64,000 nt of DNA from Spirochaetota bacterium (GTDB lineage: Bacteria; Spirochaetota; UBA4802; UBA5550), in NCBI GenBank assembly GCA_963664815.2, contig CAXXHB010000003.1, positions 1 to 64,000 on the forward strand, in the 5' to 3' direction. The position numbers and the translations under genes were made by a program. The notes under the pieces are model-generated. The model had not been told where the DNA came from. It saw only the letters and a list, made by a program, of their open reading frames with translations, and searched no databases. Below, one piece after another: positions 40,764 to 51,502 of this stretch. Numbering within the stretch: position 1 is the first letter of the stretch; the number at the start of each line of letters is the position of its first letter.

Positions 40764-41245
40764 GTGGAGAAATTTACAATACTCGTAGTTGATGATGAGC
40801 CGGCGAATATTTTCCTGCTGGAAGAGGTTTTATATAACTATAATGTAGTATCAGTAAAAAACGGCATGGAGATGTTTGATGTACTTGAAAAAACGTTACC
40901 CGACCTGATGCTGCTCGATATAATGATGCCCGGGATTGATGGATTAACGCTTGCTCGTCAGTTTATGATATACTCGCCAGGTATGGGGGAGAGGAGTTTA
41001 TTTTTATCATTGACGGGATATTAAAAGATAAGGCTTCACGAATACTGGACAGGATCAGAGAGGAGATTGCAGTGACAGAACTTGACCCTGAAAACCATAT
41101 TGCTGTTTCATTCAGCTGCGGGATAACAGATAATACTGAAATTGAAGATCAGGGTGATGTAATTGATTTACTTATAAAAATTGCTGACAGGAGACTATAT
41201 AATGCAAAATCAGGAGGGAGAAACCTGGTAATCAGTAATGATTAA
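40764..41245 (+). pseudogene. REC-GGDEF diguanylate cyclase, internally deleted and frameshifted
   Basis: First about 65 aa of a receiver domain, then in another frame from about 40961 YDILARYGGEEF...SFSCGI...ADRRLYNAKSGGRN to stop at 41245. Confidence 0.85.
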
Positions 41246-41452
41246 TATTATCAGAATATTTTATATTTAAATTGTATAAAAAGGTGATCTTAATTTCCGG
41301 ATAATAAAACCCCGTCAGATTGTAAAGGGGTGATTATTTTGAAAATCAAACAGCATATCGTTTAATACCTTGGTTTGATAAACATGTCTTTAACAGGAAA
41401 ATATGATGTAAGTAAAAAACATGTAATGAAATAAAGAAGTTTTATAAGGCAA

Positions 41453-41709
41453 GGAACAGATGTTTCTCACCTTCTGCCGATTGTACTGACAGGTGTATTT
41501 GCAGCAGTATTTCCGATGCTTTTAACATATTGGGACTGGACTGTATATAAATATAGCAATTTTTTTTTCATATTCTTGTTAACATCGGAATGGTTATAGG
41601 GATTATGCCTGTTACAGGTCTTCCTCTTTGTTTTATTTCTTACGGAGGCTCCAATCTTTTCATGATTATGATGGGGGTCGGTATTCTCAATAATATCTAT
41701 AAGAAATGA
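41453..41709 (+). pseudogene. rodA: SEDS (RodA/FtsW) gene remnant
   Basis: 41566-41709 reads FHILVNIGMVIGIMPVTGLPLCFISYGGSNL; a TM fragment GTDVSHLLPIVLTG...PMLLTY lies upstream in another frame. Confidence 0.75.
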
Positions 41710-41889
41710 TCTGCATGTCTCAGTTTGTTCATAAACTGTAACTGGCAGGCTGTCTCTGCTTATTTTCCGACCAATGAGTCAGAATTAAAAAATTTTAGTG
41801 TATTTTAAAAAAATATTTGACAGGTTTCTCTTAAAAGAAACTTATAGCTTATTATAAATTCAGTGTGAAGGAAACATTTTAAAAGTTTT

Positions 41890-42003
41890 ATGAAATCTCT
41901 GGCAAAAAAATCATTTAATGTAATCTATGCAGTAAAAGAACTGAAGTCTGCAGGCTTCGGATATTTCTATTTTTATTTTTACGTAAGTGACATATTGAAC
42001 TGA
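41890..42003 (+). CDS. Phe/Tyr-rich attenuator leader peptide (37 aa)
   Basis: MKSLAKKSFNVIYAVKELKSAGFGYFYFYFYVSDILN*, directly upstream of a terminator and the aro operon. Confidence 0.85.
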   Translation: MKSLAKKSFNVIYAVKELKSAGFGYFYFYFYVSDILN

Positions 42004-42005
42004 AA

Positions 42006-42069
42006 GAGTTTTATCATAAGAATATACGCGTAAAAAGCCCTTTGATAAAAACTCAAAGGGCTTTTTTTT
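42006..42069 (+). terminator. Attenuator: terminator with overlapping antiterminator
   Basis: AGCCCTTTGA/TCAAAGGGCT stem plus T8 tract; GAGTTTTATCA (42006-42016) complementary to TGATAAAAACTC (42043-42054). Confidence 0.85.
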
Positions 42070-42099
42070 GGTTAATCATTCAGCAAATGGAGAAGAAAG

Positions 42100-42924
42100 A
42101 TGAAAAATCTTAAGTTAGTAAAAATCAATGGTGATAATCTCAGAAGTACCTTTAAAGTCGGCAACTCGGTTATAGGTAAAGACTTTGTCATTGTAGGTGG
42201 ACCATGCTCTGTTGAGAGTGAAGAGCAGACAATGAAAACAGCGGAAGCTGTGAAAAAAGGGCATGGTAATATGCTTAGAGGCGGGGCATTCAAACCCAGA
42301 ACCTCACCCTATGACTTCCAGGGCTTAGGGCTTAAAGGGCTTAAAATCCTTGAAAAAGCAAAGCAGAAGACAGGATTGCCGATTGTCACGGAGGTCATTG
42401 ATCCCAGGGATGTTTCATGGGTATGTGAATATGCGGATATATTACAGATAGGCGCCAGGAACATGCAGAATTTCTCTCTTCTTAAAGAGGTTGGAAAATC
42501 AAACAAACCTGTCCTTCTGAAAAGAGGGATGTACTCAACTCTCAGAGAATGGCTTAATTGTGCGGAATATATTCTTGCAGAAGGAAATCCGGAAGTTATT
42601 TTATGTGAAAGAGGAATAAGAACTTTTGAAACATACACAAGAAATACACTCGACCTGAGTATTGTTCCTGCCGTAAAGGAGTTGACTCATCTTCCAATTA
42701 TGGTGGATCCCTCACATGGGACAGGTAAACTGAGTCTTATTGAGCCTATGTGTCTTGCAGCAGTTGCCGCCGGTGCTGACGGGCTTCTGCTTGAAGTACA
42801 TATCAATCCGGCAGAAGCAAAAAGCGATGCAGATCAGCAGCTAACACCGGAACAATTTTATGCAATTACGGAAAAAATTCTGAAACTTAAAAAATTTATG
42901 GATGCCGAGATTTTCAACTCATAA
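42100..42924 (+). CDS. aroF: DAHP synthase type I-beta, no regulatory domain
   Basis: [34 protein letters not shown]; only 274 aa. Confidence 0.95.
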
Positions 42925-42936
42925 CGGGTAATAAAA

Positions 42937-44013
42937 GTGAAAGAGATAAGAATAAATACAGGTGACCGTACATCGGTGGTTTTAATCGGGGAATCTATAA
43001 GGAATATACGGCAGTTCGTCCCGCCGGAGAATACTGTGATCGTAACTGATGAGAACCTTCACAGGTATTATTCATCAGTATATTCCGGCTATCCGTTGAT
43101 TGTAATCGGCACCGGTGAGAGTATTAAAACTCTGGCAACAGTTGAGACGATTATAAGAGGGCTCATAGAATTCAGGGCGCACAGGAAGACTTTTCTGCTT
43201 GGTATAGGTGGCGGAATTATCAGCGATATTGCGGGGTTTGCCGCATCGGTTTATATGAGAGGCATTCCTTTCGGGTTTATATCTACATCTCTTCTCTCCC
43301 AGGTAGATGCCAGTGTAGGGGGGAAAAACGGAGTAAATATTGACGGACTGAAAAATATGGCGGGAGTTATAAACCAGCCTCAGATTGTTATATGCGATCA
43401 CGAAATGTTAAGTACGCTTCCTGAAGAAGAATATATAAACGGCATGGCGGAACTTATTAAAACTGCATGCCTGGATAAAGAAGGACTTTTTAATTTTATT
43501 TCAGAAAACAGAGAAAAACTTTTAAAACGTGACAGCGATGCAGTTTCTGAAGCTGTGTACAGATCGGTAAAGTTCAAAGCCGGTATAGTTGAGGAGGATG
43601 AGATGGAGGATAATGTAAGGAGGATACTCAATCTCGGCCATACACTGGGTCATGCAGTGGAAAAGGTTAAAGGTGTTAAACATGGATTTGCCGTGAGTGC
43701 CGGTATCGGATTTGCATTGGAGTTTTCCGGACATTATGGAATGATTGACCCTGCAACCGGAAATGAAATAAAAGAAGTGATGAAGTATTTCGGCCTTCCG
43801 GACAAGATAGGTGATGTAGCGGAAATTGAAGATCTTCCGGAGATTCTTAAAGCAGTAGAGAGTGACAAGAAAAAGGGGGGCGCTGAGATAAACTTTGTTC
43901 TTTTAAAAGGCATCGGCAATAGTGTAATTAAAAGTATTAATCGGGAAGATCTTAAAGAATTTATATATAATTATAGTAAAAATAATATTGGTAAAAGGAA
44001 AATTAATGTATGA
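42937..44013 (+). CDS. aroB: 3-dehydroquinate synthase
   Basis: GGGIISDIAGF, VDASVGGKNG, LNLGHTLGHAVE. Confidence 0.95.
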   Translation: MKEIRINTGDRTSVVLIGESIRNIRQFVPPENTVIVTDENLHRYYSSVYSGYPLIVIGTGESIKTLATVETIIRGLIEFRAHRKTFLLGIGGGIISDIAGFAASVYMRGIPFGFISTSLLSQVDASVGGKNGVNIDGLKNMAGVINQPQIVICDHEMLSTLPEEEYINGMAELIKTACLDKEGLFNFISENREKLLKRDSDAVSEAVYRSVKFKAGIVEEDEMEDNVRRILNLGHTLGHAVEKVKGVKHGFAVSAGIGFALEFSGHYGMIDPATGNEIKEVMKYFGLPDKIGDVAEIEDLPEILKAVESDKKKGGAEINFVLLKGIGNSVIKSINREDLKEFIYNYSKNNIGKRKINV

Positions 44014-44651
44014 TATGTGTAAGTATTGCAGACCTGTCTGTAACTGAAGCGGTAAAAATTATAGAGAGTAGTGAACTTTCGGAAGTCAGGCTGGACAGAA
44101 TCAGTTTCGGTGACGGTGATATCAGGAAACTGTTTTCAACAGGGAAGATGACAATAGCCACATACAGGCCGGTAGATACTGTTACAGACAGTGAGAGGAA
44201 GAAAACCCTTGTTGAAGCGATTAATGCCGGGGCATCATACGTTGATATTGAAGTTGAGAATGATGATGATTATAAAAATGAAATTATTAAAACAGCTCAG
44301 ATAAAACAATGCAAAACAATTGTTTCGTATCATAACTATACTAAAACACCGGTTATCCGTGAACTTGAGCAGATAATGAGATGGTGTTTTGAGTGTAAAG
44401 CGGACTTCGCAAAGATAGCCTGCTATGTTGATTCGGCTGAAAGTTGTTCCAGGCTTCTTTCCCTTTACAGTTATGGAAAACCGGTTATTTCCATAGGGAT
44501 GGGACATGGCGGCAGGATCACAAGAATTGCTGCAACGCTTCTGGGGGCTCCATTTACTTATGCGTCAATTAATGAAAATAAAAAAACTGCTCCAGGGCAG
44601 TTTGATTCGGATAAATTAAAAACAATAATAGATATGATCAGGAATTCATAA
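44010..44651 (+). CDS. aroD: Type I 3-dehydroquinate dehydratase
   Basis: EVRLD, VSYHN, AKIA, MG...TR, TAPGQ. Confidence 0.92.
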   Translation: MICVSIADLSVTEAVKIIESSELSEVRLDRISFGDGDIRKLFSTGKMTIATYRPVDTVTDSERKKTLVEAINAGASYVDIEVENDDDYKNEIIKTAQIKQCKTIVSYHNYTKTPVIRELEQIMRWCFECKADFAKIACYVDSAESCSRLLSLYSYGKPVISIGMGHGGRITRIAATLLGAPFTYASINENKKTAPGQFDSDKLKTIIDMIRNS

Positions 44652-45953
44652 ATGAAAGATGATAATCATATACTTCTGGGAGTGGCCGGGTCACCTGTTT
44701 TTCACAGCAAGAGCCCTGCAATTTTCAGATCAATTTTCCGGGAAAAGGGAATAGATGCGTCGTACATCAGGATTGCTGTAAGCTGGGCTGACGAGGCGGC
44801 GAGATTATGCAATGAACTCGATTTCCGGGGCATGAATGTTACGGCGCCCTTTAAATACAGCATAATTTCTCATCTTGACAATATCTCTGATGAAGCAGAC
44901 AGAATGAAAAGTGTAAATACTGTGGTAAACAGGTACGGAAAACTCACCGGATACAACACCGATCATTACGGTGTAACGTCGCCGCTTGAGAACAGGCTCG
45001 GGTCATTGAAGTATAAAAATGCCGTAGTTGCCGGAGCCGGAGGAGCCGGGGTTTCTGCCGCTTTCGGGCTCTCGCGTTCCGGATGCAATGTTACCGTATT
45101 GAATATAACAATTAATGAAGCGAAAAACTGCGCGGATAAATTCGGCTGCAGATATGACCTCCTTGCAAATATAAAAAATTATATTTCAGCTGCAGACATT
45201 TTTGTGTCCGCTCTTCCATATGAGGCAGATCCGCTGGATATCTCCTCCATGAAAAAAGGTTCCACGGTTATGGATGCATCGTATAAAAAATCCCATTACA
45301 GGGAGCAGGCAGAGAAATGCGGATTAACATTTATTCCAGGGGAAGAGTGGCTGGTTTATCAGGCAATTTATGCATGCGGGCATTTCCTTGATTTTAATCC
45401 GCCGGCTGAAACTGCATATTCAGGAGTAATTGAGCCGCGAAAAAAAAGCGATCTTATCTCCCTTATAGGATTTATGGGTTCCGGGAAAACTTCTGCAGGG
45501 ATGGAAATCGCACGTATCAGGAAGATGGATTTCATTGATCTTGATGAACTTATTGAACTGAAAGTACAAAAGTCAGTAAATGAAATATTCCGGACTATGG
45601 GTGAAGAAAAATTCCGTGAAATTGAAACGGATATGCTTTATTCACTTAAAAATAAGAAAAATTTAATTATATCATGTGGAGGGGGTATAGTTCTTGGAGA
45701 AAGAAACAGGGAGTTTCTCAGAAATGAAACAGAATGTATCTGGCTTTATTGCGGCATGGACACAATGCTGGAAAGAGTACATGACGGGAAAAGACCACTC
45801 ATAAATGCAATGAACGATCCAATTGAAGCAGTGGAGCTTTTCAATTCGAGAAAAAAATTTTATGCTTCATCGTGCGAATCAGTTGTCTTAACAGAAACAA
45901 CACCGGAAAAAACTGCGGAGCTTATAAATGAAGAAATACGTTTATCCTTCTAA
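44652..45953 (+). CDS. aroE: Shikimate dehydrogenase-shikimate kinase fusion (AroE-AroK)
   Basis: HSKSP, NVTAPFK, VNT, GYNTD, GAGGAG, then IGFMGSGKT, GEEKFREIE, GGG, RPL. Confidence 0.9.
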   Translation: MKDDNHILLGVAGSPVFHSKSPAIFRSIFREKGIDASYIRIAVSWADEAARLCNELDFRGMNVTAPFKYSIISHLDNISDEADRMKSVNTVVNRYGKLTGYNTDHYGVTSPLENRLGSLKYKNAVVAGAGGAGVSAAFGLSRSGCNVTVLNITINEAKNCADKFGCRYDLLANIKNYISAADIFVSALPYEADPLDISSMKKGSTVMDASYKKSHYREQAEKCGLTFIPGEEWLVYQAIYACGHFLDFNPPAETAYSGVIEPRKKSDLISLIGFMGSGKTSAGMEIARIRKMDFIDLDELIELKVQKSVNEIFRTMGEEKFREIETDMLYSLKNKKNLIISCGGGIVLGERNREFLRNETECIWLYCGMDTMLERVHDGKRPLINAMNDPIEAVELFNSRKKFYASSCESVVLTETTPEKTAELINEEIRLSF

Positions 45954-47175
45954 ACTCAGCGGAACAATAGCGGCGCCCGCTTCAAAGAGCATGATGCAGA
46001 GAGCCGTTGCTGCGGCTCTTCTCGCTCAGGGTGAAAGCATTCTGTTTCATCCTTCATTCTGTAACGATTCCATGGCTGCCATGAGAGTTGCAGAGGGACT
46101 TGGGGCAACGGTTGAGAAAACACCTGATAAGGTGATAATACACGGAGGAATTAATCCTGCAACAAACATACTTAACTGCGGTGAGTCCGGTTTGTGTATA
46201 AGAATGTTTACTCCTATTGCAGCGCTCACGGGTGAAAAAATTATTCTTACCGGGGAGGGATCACTTCCAGGAAGGCCGGTGTCCGGTATAGAAAACGCAC
46301 TTGAAAAACTTGGAGTTTCTGTTAAATCGAATAACGGTTTATTGCCGGTTGAGGTATCTTCAATACTTAAAGGAGGGATAGCTGAAATTGACGGAAGTTT
46401 AAGCTCCCAGTTTCTCACGGGTCTTCTTATGGCTCTTCCTCTTGCGGAGAATGACAGCATTGTCCATGTTAAAAATCTGAAAAGCAGAGAGTATATTGAT
46501 ATTACAATTGATGTGCTGGAAAAATTCGGAATTACAGTGAAAAATGAAGAATATAATGAGTTTAGAATTAAAGGCGGGCAGAGATTTAAACCCGCACAGA
46601 TTGATATTGAGGGAGACTGGAGCGGAGCAGCCTTTCTACTCTGCGCAGGAGCAATTTCAGGGAGTATAGGCATAACAGGTTTAAACCCTGAATCATGTCA
46701 GCCAGACAGGGCGATAGTAACAGCTTTAAGAAAAAGCGGTGCTGATGTTGATATAGAAAAAAATATTATACAGGTACATTCAAAAAACCTTTACGGTTTC
46801 GAATTTGACGCAACTGAGTGCCCGGATCTTTTTCCACCTCTTGCTGCTCTTGCTTTTTATTGTAAAGGGGAAAGCCTTATATGGGGAGCTGAAAGGCTGA
46901 AGCATAAAGAGAGCGACAGAGGTTTGGCTATAATATCTGAATTTAAAAAGATGGGGGGCTCGGTGAAGATAGAAAATGACTGCATGGTTATACGCAGCTC
47001 AGCTCTTACAGGCGCAAAAATTGATCCTCATGGAGACCACAGAATGGCCATGGCGTGTGCTGTGGCAGCAACCGGTTGCTCCGGGAGAGTGGAGATTGAC
47101 GATGCCGGGTGTGTTAACAAATCGTATAATGAATTTTATGACCATATGATAAAACTGGGAGTAGAAATAAAATGA
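45928..47175 (+). CDS. aroA: EPSP synthase
   Basis: PASKS, GESG, SSQF, KESDR, DHRMAMA. Confidence 0.96.
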   Translation: MKKYVYPSKLSGTIAAPASKSMMQRAVAAALLAQGESILFHPSFCNDSMAAMRVAEGLGATVEKTPDKVIIHGGINPATNILNCGESGLCIRMFTPIAALTGEKIILTGEGSLPGRPVSGIENALEKLGVSVKSNNGLLPVEVSSILKGGIAEIDGSLSSQFLTGLLMALPLAENDSIVHVKNLKSREYIDITIDVLEKFGITVKNEEYNEFRIKGGQRFKPAQIDIEGDWSGAAFLLCAGAISGSIGITGLNPESCQPDRAIVTALRKSGADVDIEKNIIQVHSKNLYGFEFDATECPDLFPPLAALAFYCKGESLIWGAERLKHKESDRGLAIISEFKKMGGSVKIENDCMVIRSSALTGAKIDPHGDHRMAMACAVAATGCSGRVEIDDAGCVNKSYNEFYDHMIKLGVEIK

Positions 47176-48152
47176 ACAGTTTCGGAAATATTTTCAGAGT
47201 ATCTATCTTTGGTGAATCGCATGGACCGGTTATCGGCATAACTATTGACGGGTGTCCGCCCGGAATAGATTTTAATGAATCCGACATGGCGGATGATATT
47301 AAAAGAAGAATGCCCGGCGCCGCAGGGACTACTAACCGCAGAGAGTCAGATGATCCGGAAATAATCAGCGGAGTATTCAACGGAAAAACAACCGGTGCGC
47401 CTCTCGGCATAATTTTCAGAAACAGTGATATGAAATCGGATGATTATAAAAAACTGAAAAATCTGCCAAGGCCGGGGCATGCGGATCTTACCGCAATGCA
47501 GAAATATAAAGGGTTTAACGATCCACGGGGCGGAGGGCATTTTTCTGGCAGGATTACTCTTCCGCTTGTTGCAGCCGGTTCTCTTGCAAAGAAAATTATT
47601 CATAATGTATCGATTGATTCAAGGATAGTTGAGATAGCCGGAAAAGAAGATTACCATAACATTCTTGAAGAAGTGATAGCGGCAGGTGACTCGGCGGGTG
47701 GAATAATTGAAGTAAAAATGTCAGGGATTCCGGCGGGACTTGGAGAACCTTTTTTTAATTCATTTGAGTCATATGTGAGTCATATTATATTTTCTGTACC
47801 AGCAGTAAAAGGGATTGAGTTCGGGTCAGGTTTCGCTTCTGCAGGGATGCTCGGAAGTGAACATAATGACATAATAATTTCACCGGACGGGAAAACGGAA
47901 ACCAACAATGCCGGAGGTATAAACGGAGGTATAACAAATGGTAATGATGTTATCTTCAGGGTTGCTGTAAAACCTACTCCAAGCATCAAAAAGGAGCAGA
48001 ATACCGTAAATATAGAAACAGGGGAAAAGGAGAAACTTGTCGTACATGGGAGACATGACGCATGTATTGCTTTACGGACGCAGGTAGTGTTTGAGGCATG
48101 CGCCGCAATTGCAGCGGCAGACCTTTATCTTGTCAGCAAATCATGTAATTAA
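47172..48152 (+). CDS. aroC: Chorismate synthase
   Basis: GESHG, RPGHAD, GGINGG, KPTPSI, GRHD. Confidence 0.96.
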   Translation: MNSFGNIFRVSIFGESHGPVIGITIDGCPPGIDFNESDMADDIKRRMPGAAGTTNRRESDDPEIISGVFNGKTTGAPLGIIFRNSDMKSDDYKKLKNLPRPGHADLTAMQKYKGFNDPRGGGHFSGRITLPLVAAGSLAKKIIHNVSIDSRIVEIAGKEDYHNILEEVIAAGDSAGGIIEVKMSGIPAGLGEPFFNSFESYVSHIIFSVPAVKGIEFGSGFASAGMLGSEHNDIIISPDGKTETNNAGGINGGITNGNDVIFRVAVKPTPSIKKEQNTVNIETGEKEKLVVHGRHDACIALRTQVVFEACAAIAAADLYLVSKSCN

Positions 48153-48209
48153 TATCATGCTGCCGGAAACAGCTGGCAAAAAGAAAAATATTTAAACGGA
48201 GTAAATTTA

Positions 48210-49292
48210 ATGAAGCTTGAAGAAATAAGAACAACTATTGATCAGATCGATTCAAAAATATTGAAACTTCTAAATGACAGAATGGAGCAGGCAATTCTTG
48301 CAAAGAAATTTAAAAATTCAATTGAGGATCCTGAACGGGAAAGAGATATTATGGAAAAGCTTAAAAATACTCCCAATTCTCTGCTCGATCCGATATTGAC
48401 CGAATCGATTTATAAACTGATAATTTCCTGGAGCAAGAAACTTCAGGCGAAGGATTGCATGGTTATAGGCTTTCAGGGGGAACATGGAGCGTATAGTGAA
48501 GATGCTGCAAGAAGGTGGAACAAAGAGCTTCTTACGATACCATGCACAACTTTTAACGGTGTTTTTGAAGGTGTACATACCGGAATGTTTGATTTCGGTG
48601 TTGTGCCTGTTGAAAATACTCTCGGTGGAATAGTCGGGCCTGTGAATGAGCTTCTTATCAATACCGAACTTTTTATAGTCGGAGCTGTGGATATGCCTAT
48701 TCATCACAATCTGCTGATTCTGCCTGGAACTGATCACAGAGAGATACGTGAAGTATATTCACATTCTCAGGCATTGTCACAATGCAGGAGGTTTCTATCG
48801 AGAAATAATCTTGTTCCTGTGCCGTTTTATGATACAGCCGGAGCAGCAAGGATGCTGACCGAAATGAAGCCGAGAGCCGCGGCCTGCATAGCGGGGAGAC
48901 TTGCGGCAGAGCTTTACAACCTTGAGGTTATAAAGGAGAATATACAGGACTCTGACATAAACAGAACGAGATTTCTGATACTTGCCCGGGAAAGGGATAA
49001 CAGGGATGGAAATAAATGTTCCATAACATTCACGACAGCCCACAAATCGGGGACTCTTTTTGGTGTACTTGAGATATTCGCCACCGCCGGAATAAACCTG
49101 ACAAGAATTGAGTCTATCCCGACAGAACCGGGAAGCTATTCTTTTTTCCTCGATTTTGACGGTTACGATAAAGATCCGGTTGTAATTGCTGCCCTGGAGA
49201 AAGCCGGAAATTCCACTATAGATCTGAAACTTTTGGGGTGTTACGTTGAAAAATTTATCGATAACCAGACGATTAAAGAGGAGGAAGAATGA
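48210..49292 (+). CDS. pheA: Chorismate mutase / prephenate dehydratase (P-protein)
   Basis: R...ID.ID..I..LL..R chorismate mutase start; PVEN, NRTRF, ACT domain NLTRIES. Confidence 0.93.
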   Translation: MKLEEIRTTIDQIDSKILKLLNDRMEQAILAKKFKNSIEDPERERDIMEKLKNTPNSLLDPILTESIYKLIISWSKKLQAKDCMVIGFQGEHGAYSEDAARRWNKELLTIPCTTFNGVFEGVHTGMFDFGVVPVENTLGGIVGPVNELLINTELFIVGAVDMPIHHNLLILPGTDHREIREVYSHSQALSQCRRFLSRNNLVPVPFYDTAGAARMLTEMKPRAAACIAGRLAAELYNLEVIKENIQDSDINRTRFLILARERDNRDGNKCSITFTTAHKSGTLFGVLEIFATAGINLTRIESIPTEPGSYSFFLDFDGYDKDPVVIAALEKAGNSTIDLKLLGCYVEKFIDNQTIKEEEE

Positions 49293-50062
49293 AAATATTT
49301 ATTATTGGCGCAGGTCACATGGGAAGCTGGCTTACAGAAGAATTATGTCATGATCATGAAGTAGCGGTCTTTGATAAGGATCCGCGGAAGCTGAAATATT
49401 TTATAAATGTGCAGAGATTTCTCTCTGCTGAGGAAGTTAAAGATTTCAGGCCGGAACTCATTATCAATTGTGTAAGCCTGAATAAGACGGAAGAGGTTTT
49501 TAATATGCTCATTCCACTGGTTCCCGAAGATTGTATACTCGCAGATATTGCATCTGTTAAAAACGGAATTCATGATTATTATGAGAAAACAGGAAGGCGG
49601 TTTGTTTCAACACATCCAATGTTCGGGCCGACATTTGGGAATGTAAGGAATCTCAGCAGTGAGAGTGCAATCATTATAACTCAATCTGACATGGAGGGGA
49701 AGAAGTTCTTTAATGATCTTTTTTGCAGCCTTAAACTAAAAATTTATGAATACACATTTGAAGAGCACGACGAGATTACAGCATACTCGCTTTCCACTCC
49801 TTTTGCTTCATCTCTTGTGTTTGCGGCATGTATGAAAAAAATTGATGCACCCGGCACAACATTTAAGAAGCATATGGAAATAGCCAGGGGGCTTCTGTCT
49901 GAGGATGATTATCTTTTATCTGAAATTCTTTTCAATCCATATACCCTGAAGCAGATAGAGAGCATAAACTCACAATTATCATATCTTACCCATATAATCA
50001 AAGCAAGGGATTTTGAAGAGATGGAAAAATTTCTTACCAGACTCAGAGAAAATATTAAATAA
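49289..50062 (+). CDS. tyrA: Prephenate dehydrogenase
   Basis: GAGHMG, DIASVK, HPMFGP, EEHD. Confidence 0.92.
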   Translation: MKIFIIGAGHMGSWLTEELCHDHEVAVFDKDPRKLKYFINVQRFLSAEEVKDFRPELIINCVSLNKTEEVFNMLIPLVPEDCILADIASVKNGIHDYYEKTGRRFVSTHPMFGPTFGNVRNLSSESAIIITQSDMEGKKFFNDLFCSLKLKIYEYTFEEHDEITAYSLSTPFASSLVFAACMKKIDAPGTTFKKHMEIARGLLSEDDYLLSEILFNPYTLKQIESINSQLSYLTHIIKARDFEEMEKFLTRLRENIK

Positions 50063-50130
50063 AAAAAGGGATCTGACTGATCCCCTTTCCTATACTTACT
50101 GATGGTAAAAGGGCCTGGTCCCTTTTACTG
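50061..50130. terminator. Tandem terminator hairpins between convergent tyrA and rlpA
   Basis: GGGATC/GATCCC and GTAAAAGGG/CCCTTTTAC stems with T tracts. Confidence 0.7.
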
Positions 50131-50139
50131 TATTCAGAA

Positions 50140-51204
50140 TTATTCCACTTCAAAAGAAGTTACGTTGTCTTCGCTGAGCATATTTCTCAATTTGCTCATT
50201 TCCTTCTTGTCTTTTAAGCCTTCAACACGGACTTTAAAAAAGTTATTATCCTGAATTATCCTTACATTACGATTGGTCATACTCTCAATTTTTAATTTTA
50301 AATTTTCAGCATTTTTTCTTGAATAGAATGCACCTGCCTGAATTTTCATACTGTTGCTGTTAGCGTTGCTGCTGCTGTTATAATCATCCGGACTTTCACT
50401 TTTAACATTCATATAATTTTCATCATCAGCAACAGGTTCAATATATTTTTTATTTTTATTGGAAGCTGAATTGCTGTTTATTTTTTTAATTATTTTTATC
50501 CCGACATTTGCTTCACCGGTTTTCACTATGCCGATTTCTTTTGCACCGGCATATGAAAGGTCTATAATGCGGTTTCCTCTATAAGGACCTCTGTCATTGA
50601 TTTTAAGTCTGACAGATTTTCCGTTTGAGAGATTTTTTACTTCAACTATTGTTCCAAAGGGCAGAGTTTTATGAGCTGCTGTCATATCATTCATATCAAA
50701 TACTTCCCCTGATGCGGTAGTTTTCCCGTGAAATTCTCTTCCGTACCATGATGCAGAACCTTTCTGGTAGAATTTTTCTGATTCATTTTCCTGATTTTCA
50801 GAATCATCTTCGTAGTTGTTATTATTTTTTACTGGTTTAGAATAGGACTCATCATTATATTCTTCAGGATCCTTATATTTTCCTTTAGTTTCTTTATACT
50901 CATCAGCTCCGGATTTGCTGTTTTCCCCGTTAGACTTTACGCGCATTTTTTTGTTATCATAATCCTTGCTATTATTTGCGTATTTATCCCCGGAATATGA
51001 GGATTTAGCCTTCTTATTCATTGCCGGAATTTCATCATCATTTGAGCTGTTATCGTTGTCGAATGCTTCAAATTCTTCATTCTGAAAGCTTCCTTTATAG
51101 TCGTTATTTTTGGTTTGAGCTTTTCCCGGCGTGCATCCCATAAAGAACATAATAACCACTGCGCCGACGAGAGATATTAACATGCTTTTCAGCAAATTAT
51201 ACAT
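50140..51204 (-). CDS. rlpA: Septal ring lytic transglycosylase RlpA (lipoprotein, DPBB + SPOR)
   Basis: Lipobox FMGC; ASWYG..FHG.TTASGE, TAAHKTLPFGT, INDRGP, RIIDLS; IQAGAF SPOR domain. Confidence 0.93.
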   Translation of the reverse strand: MYNLLKSMLISLVGAVVIMFFMGCTPGKAQTKNNDYKGSFQNEEFEAFDNDNSSNDDEIPAMNKKAKSSYSGDKYANNSKDYDNKKMRVKSNGENSKSGADEYKETKGKYKDPEEYNDESYSKPVKNNNNYEDDSENQENESEKFYQKGSASWYGREFHGKTTASGEVFDMNDMTAAHKTLPFGTIVEVKNLSNGKSVRLKINDRGPYRGNRIIDLSYAGAKEIGIVKTGEANVGIKIIKKINSNSASNKNKKYIEPVADDENYMNVKSESPDDYNSSSNANSNSMKIQAGAFYSRKNAENLKLKIESMTNRNVRIIQDNNFFKVRVEGLKDKKEMSKLRNMLSEDNVTSFEVE

Positions 51205-51239
51205 ATTGGTACCTCCGAATATATAAACACCTGTTTATC

Positions 51240-51266
51240 TTATCGGAAAGGTGTATTTTATCTTTA
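51240..51266 (-). promoter_or_regulatory. Sigma-28-type promoter upstream of rlpA
   Basis: Minus strand TAAA-N15-TCCGATAA. Confidence 0.5.
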
Positions 51267-51329
51267 ATAATAATTTAATTTTATGTCGCAAAAATCCTTG
51301 ACCACTTCAACACATGGTATAATTAAAGA

Positions 51330-51502
51330 AAGATGCTGAATAGCCGTTATGCAGCGATTTGCGCAACCTGTCTGGGCATACTCGCAACGAGTATTGATAA
51401 ATAAAAATCTGAATAAACTGATTTTTATAATGATATCAAAAAGACGGTTACTACATCCCGCAGGTCTTCTTATTCGGACGTAAAAATGGAGGTTTTACGA
51501 CC
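51330..51502 (+). ncRNA. Candidate structured leader or ncRNA, family not recognised
   Basis: Extended -10 TGGTATAAT at 51315-51323; five stems and a possible pseudoknot. Confidence 0.35.

Follow-up and report, generated by a model that had tools for sequence, protein, structure and literature searches.

The aromatic operon and its leader region

Within the 64,000-nucleotide stretch of DNA from an uncultured member of the Spirochaetota analyzed here (the window, to which plain coordinates refer), eight open reading frames spanning 42100-50062 follow an intrinsic terminator, overlapping or separated by gaps of at most 57 nt, the ATG of the first lying 31 bases beyond the terminator. The preliminary description of this DNA had proposed that a leader controls eight shikimate-pathway genes, and Pfam assignments bear out all eight, from DAHP synthase to tyrA:

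42100-42924, + strand: DAHP synthase, type I family, 274 aa (Pfam PF00793, E 1.5e-81), preceded by GGAG at 42089-42092
42937-44013, + strand: 3-dehydroquinate synthase (Pfam)
44010-44651, + strand: type I 3-dehydroquinase (Pfam)
44652-45953, + strand: shikimate dehydrogenase-shikimate kinase fusion, 433 aa (PF08501, PF01488, PF01202)
45928-47175, + strand: EPSP synthase (Pfam)
47172-48152, + strand: chorismate synthase (Pfam)
48210-49292, + strand: chorismate mutase-prephenate dehydratase-ACT, pheA type (Pfam)
49289-50062, + strand: prephenate dehydrogenase, tyrA type (Pfam)
50059-50093, readable on both strands: terminator-like hairpin (terminator scan) at the operon end, before a convergent gene

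The DAHP synthase consists of the core alone, Pfam detecting no further domain, and it is the only one found in the genome (96.2% complete), where PF00793 has this single match over cut-off and PF01474 has none. The operon is kept in the same order in all four genomes of four other genera that were checked, and it ends in pheA and tyrA in each of the five genomes looked at.

Ahead of the terminator lies a short reading frame with a dense aromatic run, itself preceded by a promoter-like hexamer:

41817-41822, + strand: -35-like hexamer TTGACA of the putative leader promoter, 68 nt upstream of the leader start
41890-42003, + strand: leader ORF, ATG start, 37 codons and a stop; product MKSLAKKSFNVIYAVKELKSAGFGYFYFYFYVSDILN
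41956-41982, + strand: regulatory run F-G-Y-F-Y-F-Y-F-Y, encoded TTC GGA TAT TTC TAT TTT TAT TTT TAC
42001-42003, + strand: leader stop TGA, 6 sense codons downstream of the last Tyr codon

Translation and coordinates agree with the 37-residue leader, the aromatic run and the stop position as originally described. The run comprises four Phe and four Tyr codons in nine positions. When the 5.2 Mb genome is translated in all six frames, uninterrupted stretches of at least seven Phe or Tyr residues occur 15 times, and among these the leader run is the only one at this operon; this rarity, together with the recurrence of the ORF, the run and both RNA helices in relatives, places the leader beyond chance expectation. 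No Shine-Dalgarno sequence stands at normal spacing before the leader ATG (an AAGGAAA ends 15 nt upstream of it), and comparison of upstream sequences shows that several relatives lack one too, which is the weak point of the case for a translatable ORF.

Both the window and 13 of the 14 relatives with the same leader type whose 300 nt of upstream sequence reached far enough to be counted have TTGACA about 65-75 nt ahead of the leader start (two of these relatives, L042 and L043, are identical; the exception is L036). The hexamer is missing from the promoter-scan list because no good -10 element follows it at 16-18 nt. Directly 3' of the hexamer lies an inverted repeat, GTTTCT-N6-AGAAAC (41824-41841), in place of which relatives carry other palindromes such as GACCGATCGGTC and GACTTTGAAGTC; it could be an operator or a structural element at initiation. 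Further upstream there are only gene fragments (40764-41024, 41072-41245 and 41590-41709) and no intact gene that the terminator at 42032-42069 might serve. One remnant is a truncated response-regulator receiver domain matching profile positions 1-64 of 111, and another is the last 39 residues of an FtsW/RodA-family protein, the rest of which is absent before it. The leader region as a whole is A+T-rich, with a GC fraction of about 0.30.

Alternative helices and ribosome position

Three RNA helices can be drawn between the regulatory run and the first gene or just ahead of them, two of which compete for the same nucleotides:

41941-41960, + strand: hairpin P1, 8 pairs, loop UGCA, ending within the first Phe and Gly codons; -9.4 kcal/mol
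42006-42020, + strand: antiterminator 5' strand, GAGUUUUAUCAUAAG, with its partner at 42040-42054
42032-42069, + strand: intrinsic terminator, G+C core stem 42037-42045/42053-42061, A/U extension, U-tract 42062-42069
42040-42054, + strand: antiterminator 3' strand, comprising the terminator loop in full, flanked by the final 6 nt of the 5' arm and the initial 2 nt of the 3' arm

The strong terminator initially placed at 42036-42069 is real in these analyses, with the stem start refined to 42032: the terminator scan returns a stem of 14 pairs at 42032-42066 with 5 G-C pairs, a loop of 7 and a T-run to 42069, ranks it as the top terminator-like site in 41000-51500, and its folding energy is -18.0 kcal/mol. 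Over an alignment of 19 sequences it is paired in 98.2% of cells, with two pairs altered on both sides. The pairing of 42006-42016 with the terminator that had been proposed likewise holds, as a duplex with 42043-42054 that extends to 42020/42040 and comprises 14 pairs, one bulge and one mismatch; the corresponding hairpin (42004-42056) has an energy of -8.5 kcal/mol. The antiterminator and the terminator stem have 8 nt in common, in addition to the terminator loop. From this geometry we take the two structures to be mutually exclusive, as their coexistence would require a helix of 11-14 bp to be bridged with linkers of 0-1 nt.

Comparison among the 19 sequences supports the antiterminator in several ways. 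The best duplex between the region past the stop and the terminator falls at the antiterminator position in all 19, starting at stop+0 to +6 (for most of these relatives, 3-6 nt past the stop), with energies of -10.3 to -17.6 kcal/mol; in 16 of them at most 7 of 300 shuffles did as well, and in the remaining three 10, 12 and 17 did. Aligned antiterminator columns are paired in 95.4% of cells, versus 28-52% in controls with the 3' partner displaced by 1-3 columns. Telling for both helices is a three-way compensation in L047 (identical to L137), in which three positions have changed together so that an antiterminator A-U becomes G-C and a terminator U-A becomes C-G, with both pairs kept; register-shifted compensations are found in the antiterminators of L037/L040/L041 and L045. 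Formal covariation in the antiterminator is weak, as so little of the element varies: one pair is altered on both sides, and 461 of 500 shuffles reach the covariation score. From this column count the outermost G-C pair, 42006/42054, was omitted, as MAFFT misplaces one column beside a gap, and the duplexes computed for each sequence are to be preferred. The antiterminator hairpin loop carries AUAUA(C) at 42021-42027, three bases of which (A125, T126 and A127 in alignment A1) are invariant in the 19 sequences; no pairing partner was identified for it.

Hairpin P1 is paired in 88.8% of cells over the same 19 sequences, with changes from U-G to C-G and to U-A, and L047 has in its place a hairpin of different sequence, displaced by about 6 nt. 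Followed as it is by the U-rich run, P1 makes, by analogy, a plausible RNA polymerase pause signal. It does not contact 42006-42020, and no protector helix (1:2) joining the regulatory codons to the antiterminator strand was found. Two other pairings were considered and set aside: pairing of the leader start region (41886-41900) with the antiterminator strand, seen in the first fold, appears fortuitous and by eye is lost in L037 and L047; and the weak pairing 41968-41976/42016-42024, a possible 1:2 protector, appears in the full-length fold only and loses to the antiterminator in nascent RNA.

Ribosome position was modeled by constrained folding, keeping unpaired the segment from 15 nt upstream to 12 nt downstream of the A-site codon; a ribosome's footprint extends about 12 nt beyond its A site. 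Nascent RNA ending at 42054 has the antiterminator as its minimum-energy structure if no ribosome is present, or if one occupies the third aromatic codon or the last Tyr codon; placing the ribosome on the stop codon abolishes the antiterminator. In the full-length RNA the terminator wins in every case (-18.0 versus -8.5 kcal/mol), that of a ribosome at the final Tyr codon included, so that read-through must be kinetic, as antitermination likewise is in the E. coli trp operon. Since the free RNA folds as the antiterminator and a 1:2 helix is lacking, an untranslated leader is predicted to read through; the broad class of attenuators still fits, because a 1:2 protector is not present in all attenuators of this kind.

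The locus thus combines a short ORF, a cluster of cognate codons, a terminator, an exclusive antiterminator helix and a geometry in which a ribosome would mask one strand of that helix, and the comparisons and folds above establish these parts of the predicted switch, their conservation and geometry and, by that geometry, their mutual exclusivity. Both the constrained folds and the conserved spacing agree with the trp/pheA logic put forward at the outset, in which a ribosome at the stop masks the antiterminator and one stalled among the Phe and Tyr codons frees it. We conclude that the element is very probably a ribosome-mediated (leader-peptide) transcription attenuator of the aroG-aroB-aroD-aroEK-aroA-aroC-pheA-tyrA operon, which would report the charging of Phe-tRNA, Tyr-tRNA or, as we infer, both.

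In the mechanism that we propose, transcription would start upstream of the leader and RNA polymerase would probably pause after P1 until translation of the leader begins. With Phe-tRNA and Tyr-tRNA plentiful, the ribosome would reach the stop at 42001-42003 and cover about 42001-42013, hence most of the antiterminator 5' strand; with that strand covered, the terminator at 42032-42069 would fold and transcription would end ahead of the first gene. Were either charged tRNA scarce, the ribosome would stall in the run at 41956-41982, with no fewer than 20 nt still separating it from the antiterminator strand, which would then be free to pair with 42040-42054 as soon as the latter is transcribed. 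The apical half of the terminator would in that case be occupied before its 3' arm emerges, and the polymerase would continue into the eight genes. Of these steps, we infer the pausing, the sensitivity to Phe and Tyr supply and how large the effect would be. A search of sequencing runs for window 41700-42700 listed no RNA run with this stretch and four runs of unspecified kind, in contig form, that contain it.

Leaders in relatives and in the same genome

Relatives were gathered through DAHP synthase homologs, and their upstream DNA was screened for leaders. Looking for Phe/Tyr-rich upstream ORFs before homologous operons, as the preliminary description had suggested, recovered leaders in relatives of the family: a homologous leader ORF precedes the DAHP synthase gene at all seven loci of the same genus and at the three close orthologs from other genera of the family, as well as at all 16 loci L032-L047 of the named collection. 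A covariance model (R1) built on the segment from P1 to the terminator matches once, and only once, in each of 24 of the 64 family genomes, representing 6 of 25 genera, and the R1 matches and named loci together make up 23 distinct sequences. In every one of the 23, the run has between 2 and 6 Phe codons and between 2 and 7 Tyr codons, Trp codons being absent, and the spacing from run to stop is 5-7 codons in 22 of them by the script's definition of the run. Codon changes inside the run are synonymous or swap Phe and Tyr. The proposed pattern survives in part: a dense Phe/Tyr mix without Trp is kept in 23 of 23 copies, while strict alternation is lost (FFYFYFY, YYYFYFY and others), the proportions drifting from 6F:3Y to 2F:6Y. 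The reading frame, the aromatic run, the stop spacing and the distance from stop to antiterminator are conserved; the N-terminal residues vary. In several same-genus relatives (L033, L005, L003 and L035), the distance from the attenuator terminator to the DAHP synthase start is lengthened by inserts of 50-150 nt, which include G+C-rich hairpins and repeated units resembling AGATGAAAAT.

The first upstream screen, which called for at least 5 F/Y/W in 9 residues within 450 nt upstream, found no leader at L013-L015, L019, L030 and L031, and the ORFs that it flagged at L023, L028 and L029 were rejected, each being the end of an upstream gene. A second screen of 80 loci (at least 6 in 9, 600 nt upstream) flagged 35 and left 45 unflagged; none of the 15 loci labeled Syntrophomonadaceae, Bacillota or Firmicutes, at 76-82% identity, was among those flagged, and the hits at L088 and L101 look spurious. 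Small aromatic-rich ORFs were also seen before DAHP synthase genes 72-76% identical to that of the operon, in metagenome-assembled genomes whose labels, as given, read archaeon or Micrarchaeota, Desulfobacterales/Deltaproteobacteria and Clostridiales (L075, L084, L085, L090, L102, L103, L105, L107; L076, L080, L083; L089).

A second class of leader accompanies a different DAHP synthase. In other genera and families of the order, the class 2 enzyme is 50-63% identical and has an N-terminal extension of about 80-90 residues, for which no Pfam match was found. Ten of 14 class 2 loci (L016-L018, L020-L022 and L024-L027) carry an unrelated leader with Phe, Tyr and exactly one Trp codon (for example YFYFWYFYF), which has a conserved end (...SRS or ...ARL, then the stop) whose last codons and stop lie within a strand complementary to the following terminator. 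Eight of these loci extended by about 12 kb (L140-L147) showed no other aro, phe, tyr or trp gene downstream, barring one aroE-like match. Class 1 leaders, with Phe and Tyr and no Trp, precede aroG...pheA-tyrA in five of five genomes. On these related genomes, the tracking of gene content by leader codon content is suggestive; that the codon make-up of aro leaders is matched to what their transcript encodes, within one spirochaete family, is a reading that we hold tentatively, as a distinct possibility short of a probable one. If it were true, such leaders would be natural multi-input OR gates whose inputs are set by codon choice alone. The class 1 attenuator would moreover be the main control of pathway entry, given that the 274-residue DAHP synthase has no extra domain in the Pfam scan; to our knowledge, short type I DAHP synthases lack feedback control.

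The same genome holds other leaders. A genome-wide screen for small ORFs with amino-acid runs that end just before a terminator gave 78 candidates, of which ten were inspected, with Pfam run on three downstream genes; among those inspected, only the leuA leader is convincing. A further leader stands before a trp cluster:

G000:C3:3739613-3739746 (in L112), - strand: Leu-rich leader MKSLNHKSLLLGLLLLSLLKAGVIS, preceded by TTGACA and followed by a strong terminator
L115:9445-9549 (about G000:C2:817444-817548), - strand: Trp leader ...FSMIWWWHNI, preceded by TTGACA and followed by two terminator-like hairpins

The gene after the Leu-rich leader encodes 526 aa with HMGL-like and LeuA-dimer domains, identifying it as leuA; this leader begins MKSL, like the aro leader. 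The Trp leader precedes the ORF that heads a trpD-trpC-trpF-trpB-trpA cluster (L115 4996-9324, - strand), in which trpA was assigned by PF00290 and trpD, trpC, trpF and trpB were named from gene order and size. Since the trp cluster has its own WWW leader, a Trp codon in the aro leader would be superfluous for the Trp branch, even though the DAHP synthase of the operon is the only one found in this genome. A 17-bp perfect palindrome covers the putative -10 region and start codon of the Trp leader. Small ORFs with an Ile/Thr/Ala or Ile run followed by a terminator were also seen before a class I/II aminotransferase gene (G000:C3:1867474-1867613, - strand; L114) and a GNAT acetyltransferase gene (G000:C3:1346547-1346672, - strand; L113).

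Of the alternatives to the proposed attenuator, the least credible, to which we give practically no weight, takes the ORF for a frame arisen by chance in T-rich DNA and the hairpin for the terminator of an upstream gene: the A+T-richness of the region is in its favor, but upstream there are only gene fragments together with a conserved TTGACA, and the ORF and helices are conserved over six genera, in one copy per genome and always before the aro operon. It is also very improbable that a genuine terminator and competing helix are switched by something other than ribosome position, be it a protein, an uncharged tRNA acting as in a T-box, a small-molecule riboswitch or arrest by a nascent peptide that senses the free amino acid. 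The leader's want of a well-placed Shine-Dalgarno would suit such a switch, as would the palindrome in the promoter spacer (41824-41841), through which protein control at initiation may coexist with attenuation. Against it, no T-box, riboswitch or protein-binding leader family reaches the Rfam cut-off here, and conservation of the frame, the run, the 5-7 codons to the stop and the stop-antiterminator distance, while N-terminal residues vary, favors the position of the ribosome over a peptide or an aptamer.

A nearer rival, unlikely in our view but less so than the other two, accepts the leader-peptide attenuator and holds that it senses one amino acid in practice, for example Phe, the other codon being tolerated as filler because TTY and TAY are one base apart. 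The drift in Phe and Tyr proportions among relatives is compatible with this, and in a review's account of Corynebacterium glutamicum, the F-Y-F leader aroR answered Phe limitation, the only one effective, and was unaffected by Tyr supply (PMC11802643), so that dual Phe/Tyr sensing is not assured. On the other side, Phe and Tyr are each present at least twice in all 23 distinct copies, the operon closes with genes of both branches, pheA and tyrA, wherever it was looked at, and the sister leaders that stand before a solitary DAHP synthase gene contain, in addition, exactly one Trp codon, a hint of selection on codon content. We retain as the preferred reading the ribosome-mediated attenuator, with Phe and Tyr codons as putative joint inputs.

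The element is to be regarded as a real, well-conserved cis-regulatory one, very probably a textbook mechanism in a lineage for which we found no report: the literature searched contained no aromatic-leader attenuator in spirochaetes, in keeping with the preliminary description, whose author knew of no such example. The known mechanism of attenuation is unchanged by the finding. What is extended is its range, as classical leader-peptide attenuation would now reach the Spirochaetota, with at least three pathways in this genome (aromatic, Trp and Leu), and the growing, uncatalogued set of aromatic leader attenuators before DAHP synthase genes is enlarged by an element that has no Rfam family. 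In genome annotation, the element can serve to mark where the entire Phe/Tyr pathway of this lineage begins on the promoter side and how it is probably regulated, and it offers a natural test case for whether one leader can report two amino acids.

Comparison with known systems

A permissive Rfam search of 41650-42200 gave no family at its gathering score. The best leader-type matches were Thr_leader (22.7 bits) and Phe_leader (RF01859; 21.1 bits, E 0.46), the cut-off being 55 for both, so that the element is not a member of Phe_leader; no T-box matched in the same interval at E up to 10.

In the E. coli trpL-trpEDCBA system, the antiterminator strand is masked once the ribosome has reached the stop codon and stays free while the ribosome is at the regulatory codons, and a 1:2 helix that includes the regulatory codons enforces termination when the leader is not translated. 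The spirochaete element would follow the same logic of ribosome position, and here too the antiterminator is weaker than the terminator. It differs in that P1 lies upstream of the run and has no contact with the antiterminator strand.

Among the closest cases is E. coli pheL-pheA, which as described (PMC3082878) shares an aromatic codon run, an intrinsic terminator, alternative helices and control of a chorismate mutase-prephenate dehydratase. That system, in the same account, uses Phe codons only and controls one gene, whereas the spirochaete element has codons for both amino acids, precedes eight genes and is without a 1:2 protector helix. In Acholeplasma, the uORFC-13-1 motif is a predicted Phe-coding uORF just before a terminator and upstream of aroF (PMC8632094), and so presents the same order of Phe-codon uORF, terminator and DAHP synthase gene; as reported there, it is a prediction with at least one Phe codon and no Tyr run, confined to Acholeplasma and environmental sequences. 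An older comparative study reports no such element for Phe or Tyr in Actinobacteria (PMC1262725).

Another of the closest cases is the C. glutamicum aroR leader (F-Y-F) before aroF, which a review and a transcriptome paper report to act by ribosome stalling (PMC11802643, PMC4046766), and the spirochaete element resembles it in having a short Phe/Tyr leader ORF before a DAHP synthase gene and, on our reading, attenuation through a stalled ribosome. The resemblance across phyla is functional only. Where aroR offers F-Y-F alone, the spirochaete leader has eight aromatic codons in nine, and where descriptions of the C. glutamicum operon name only aroF, the spirochaete transcript would carry all seven steps of the shikimate pathway together with pheA and tyrA.
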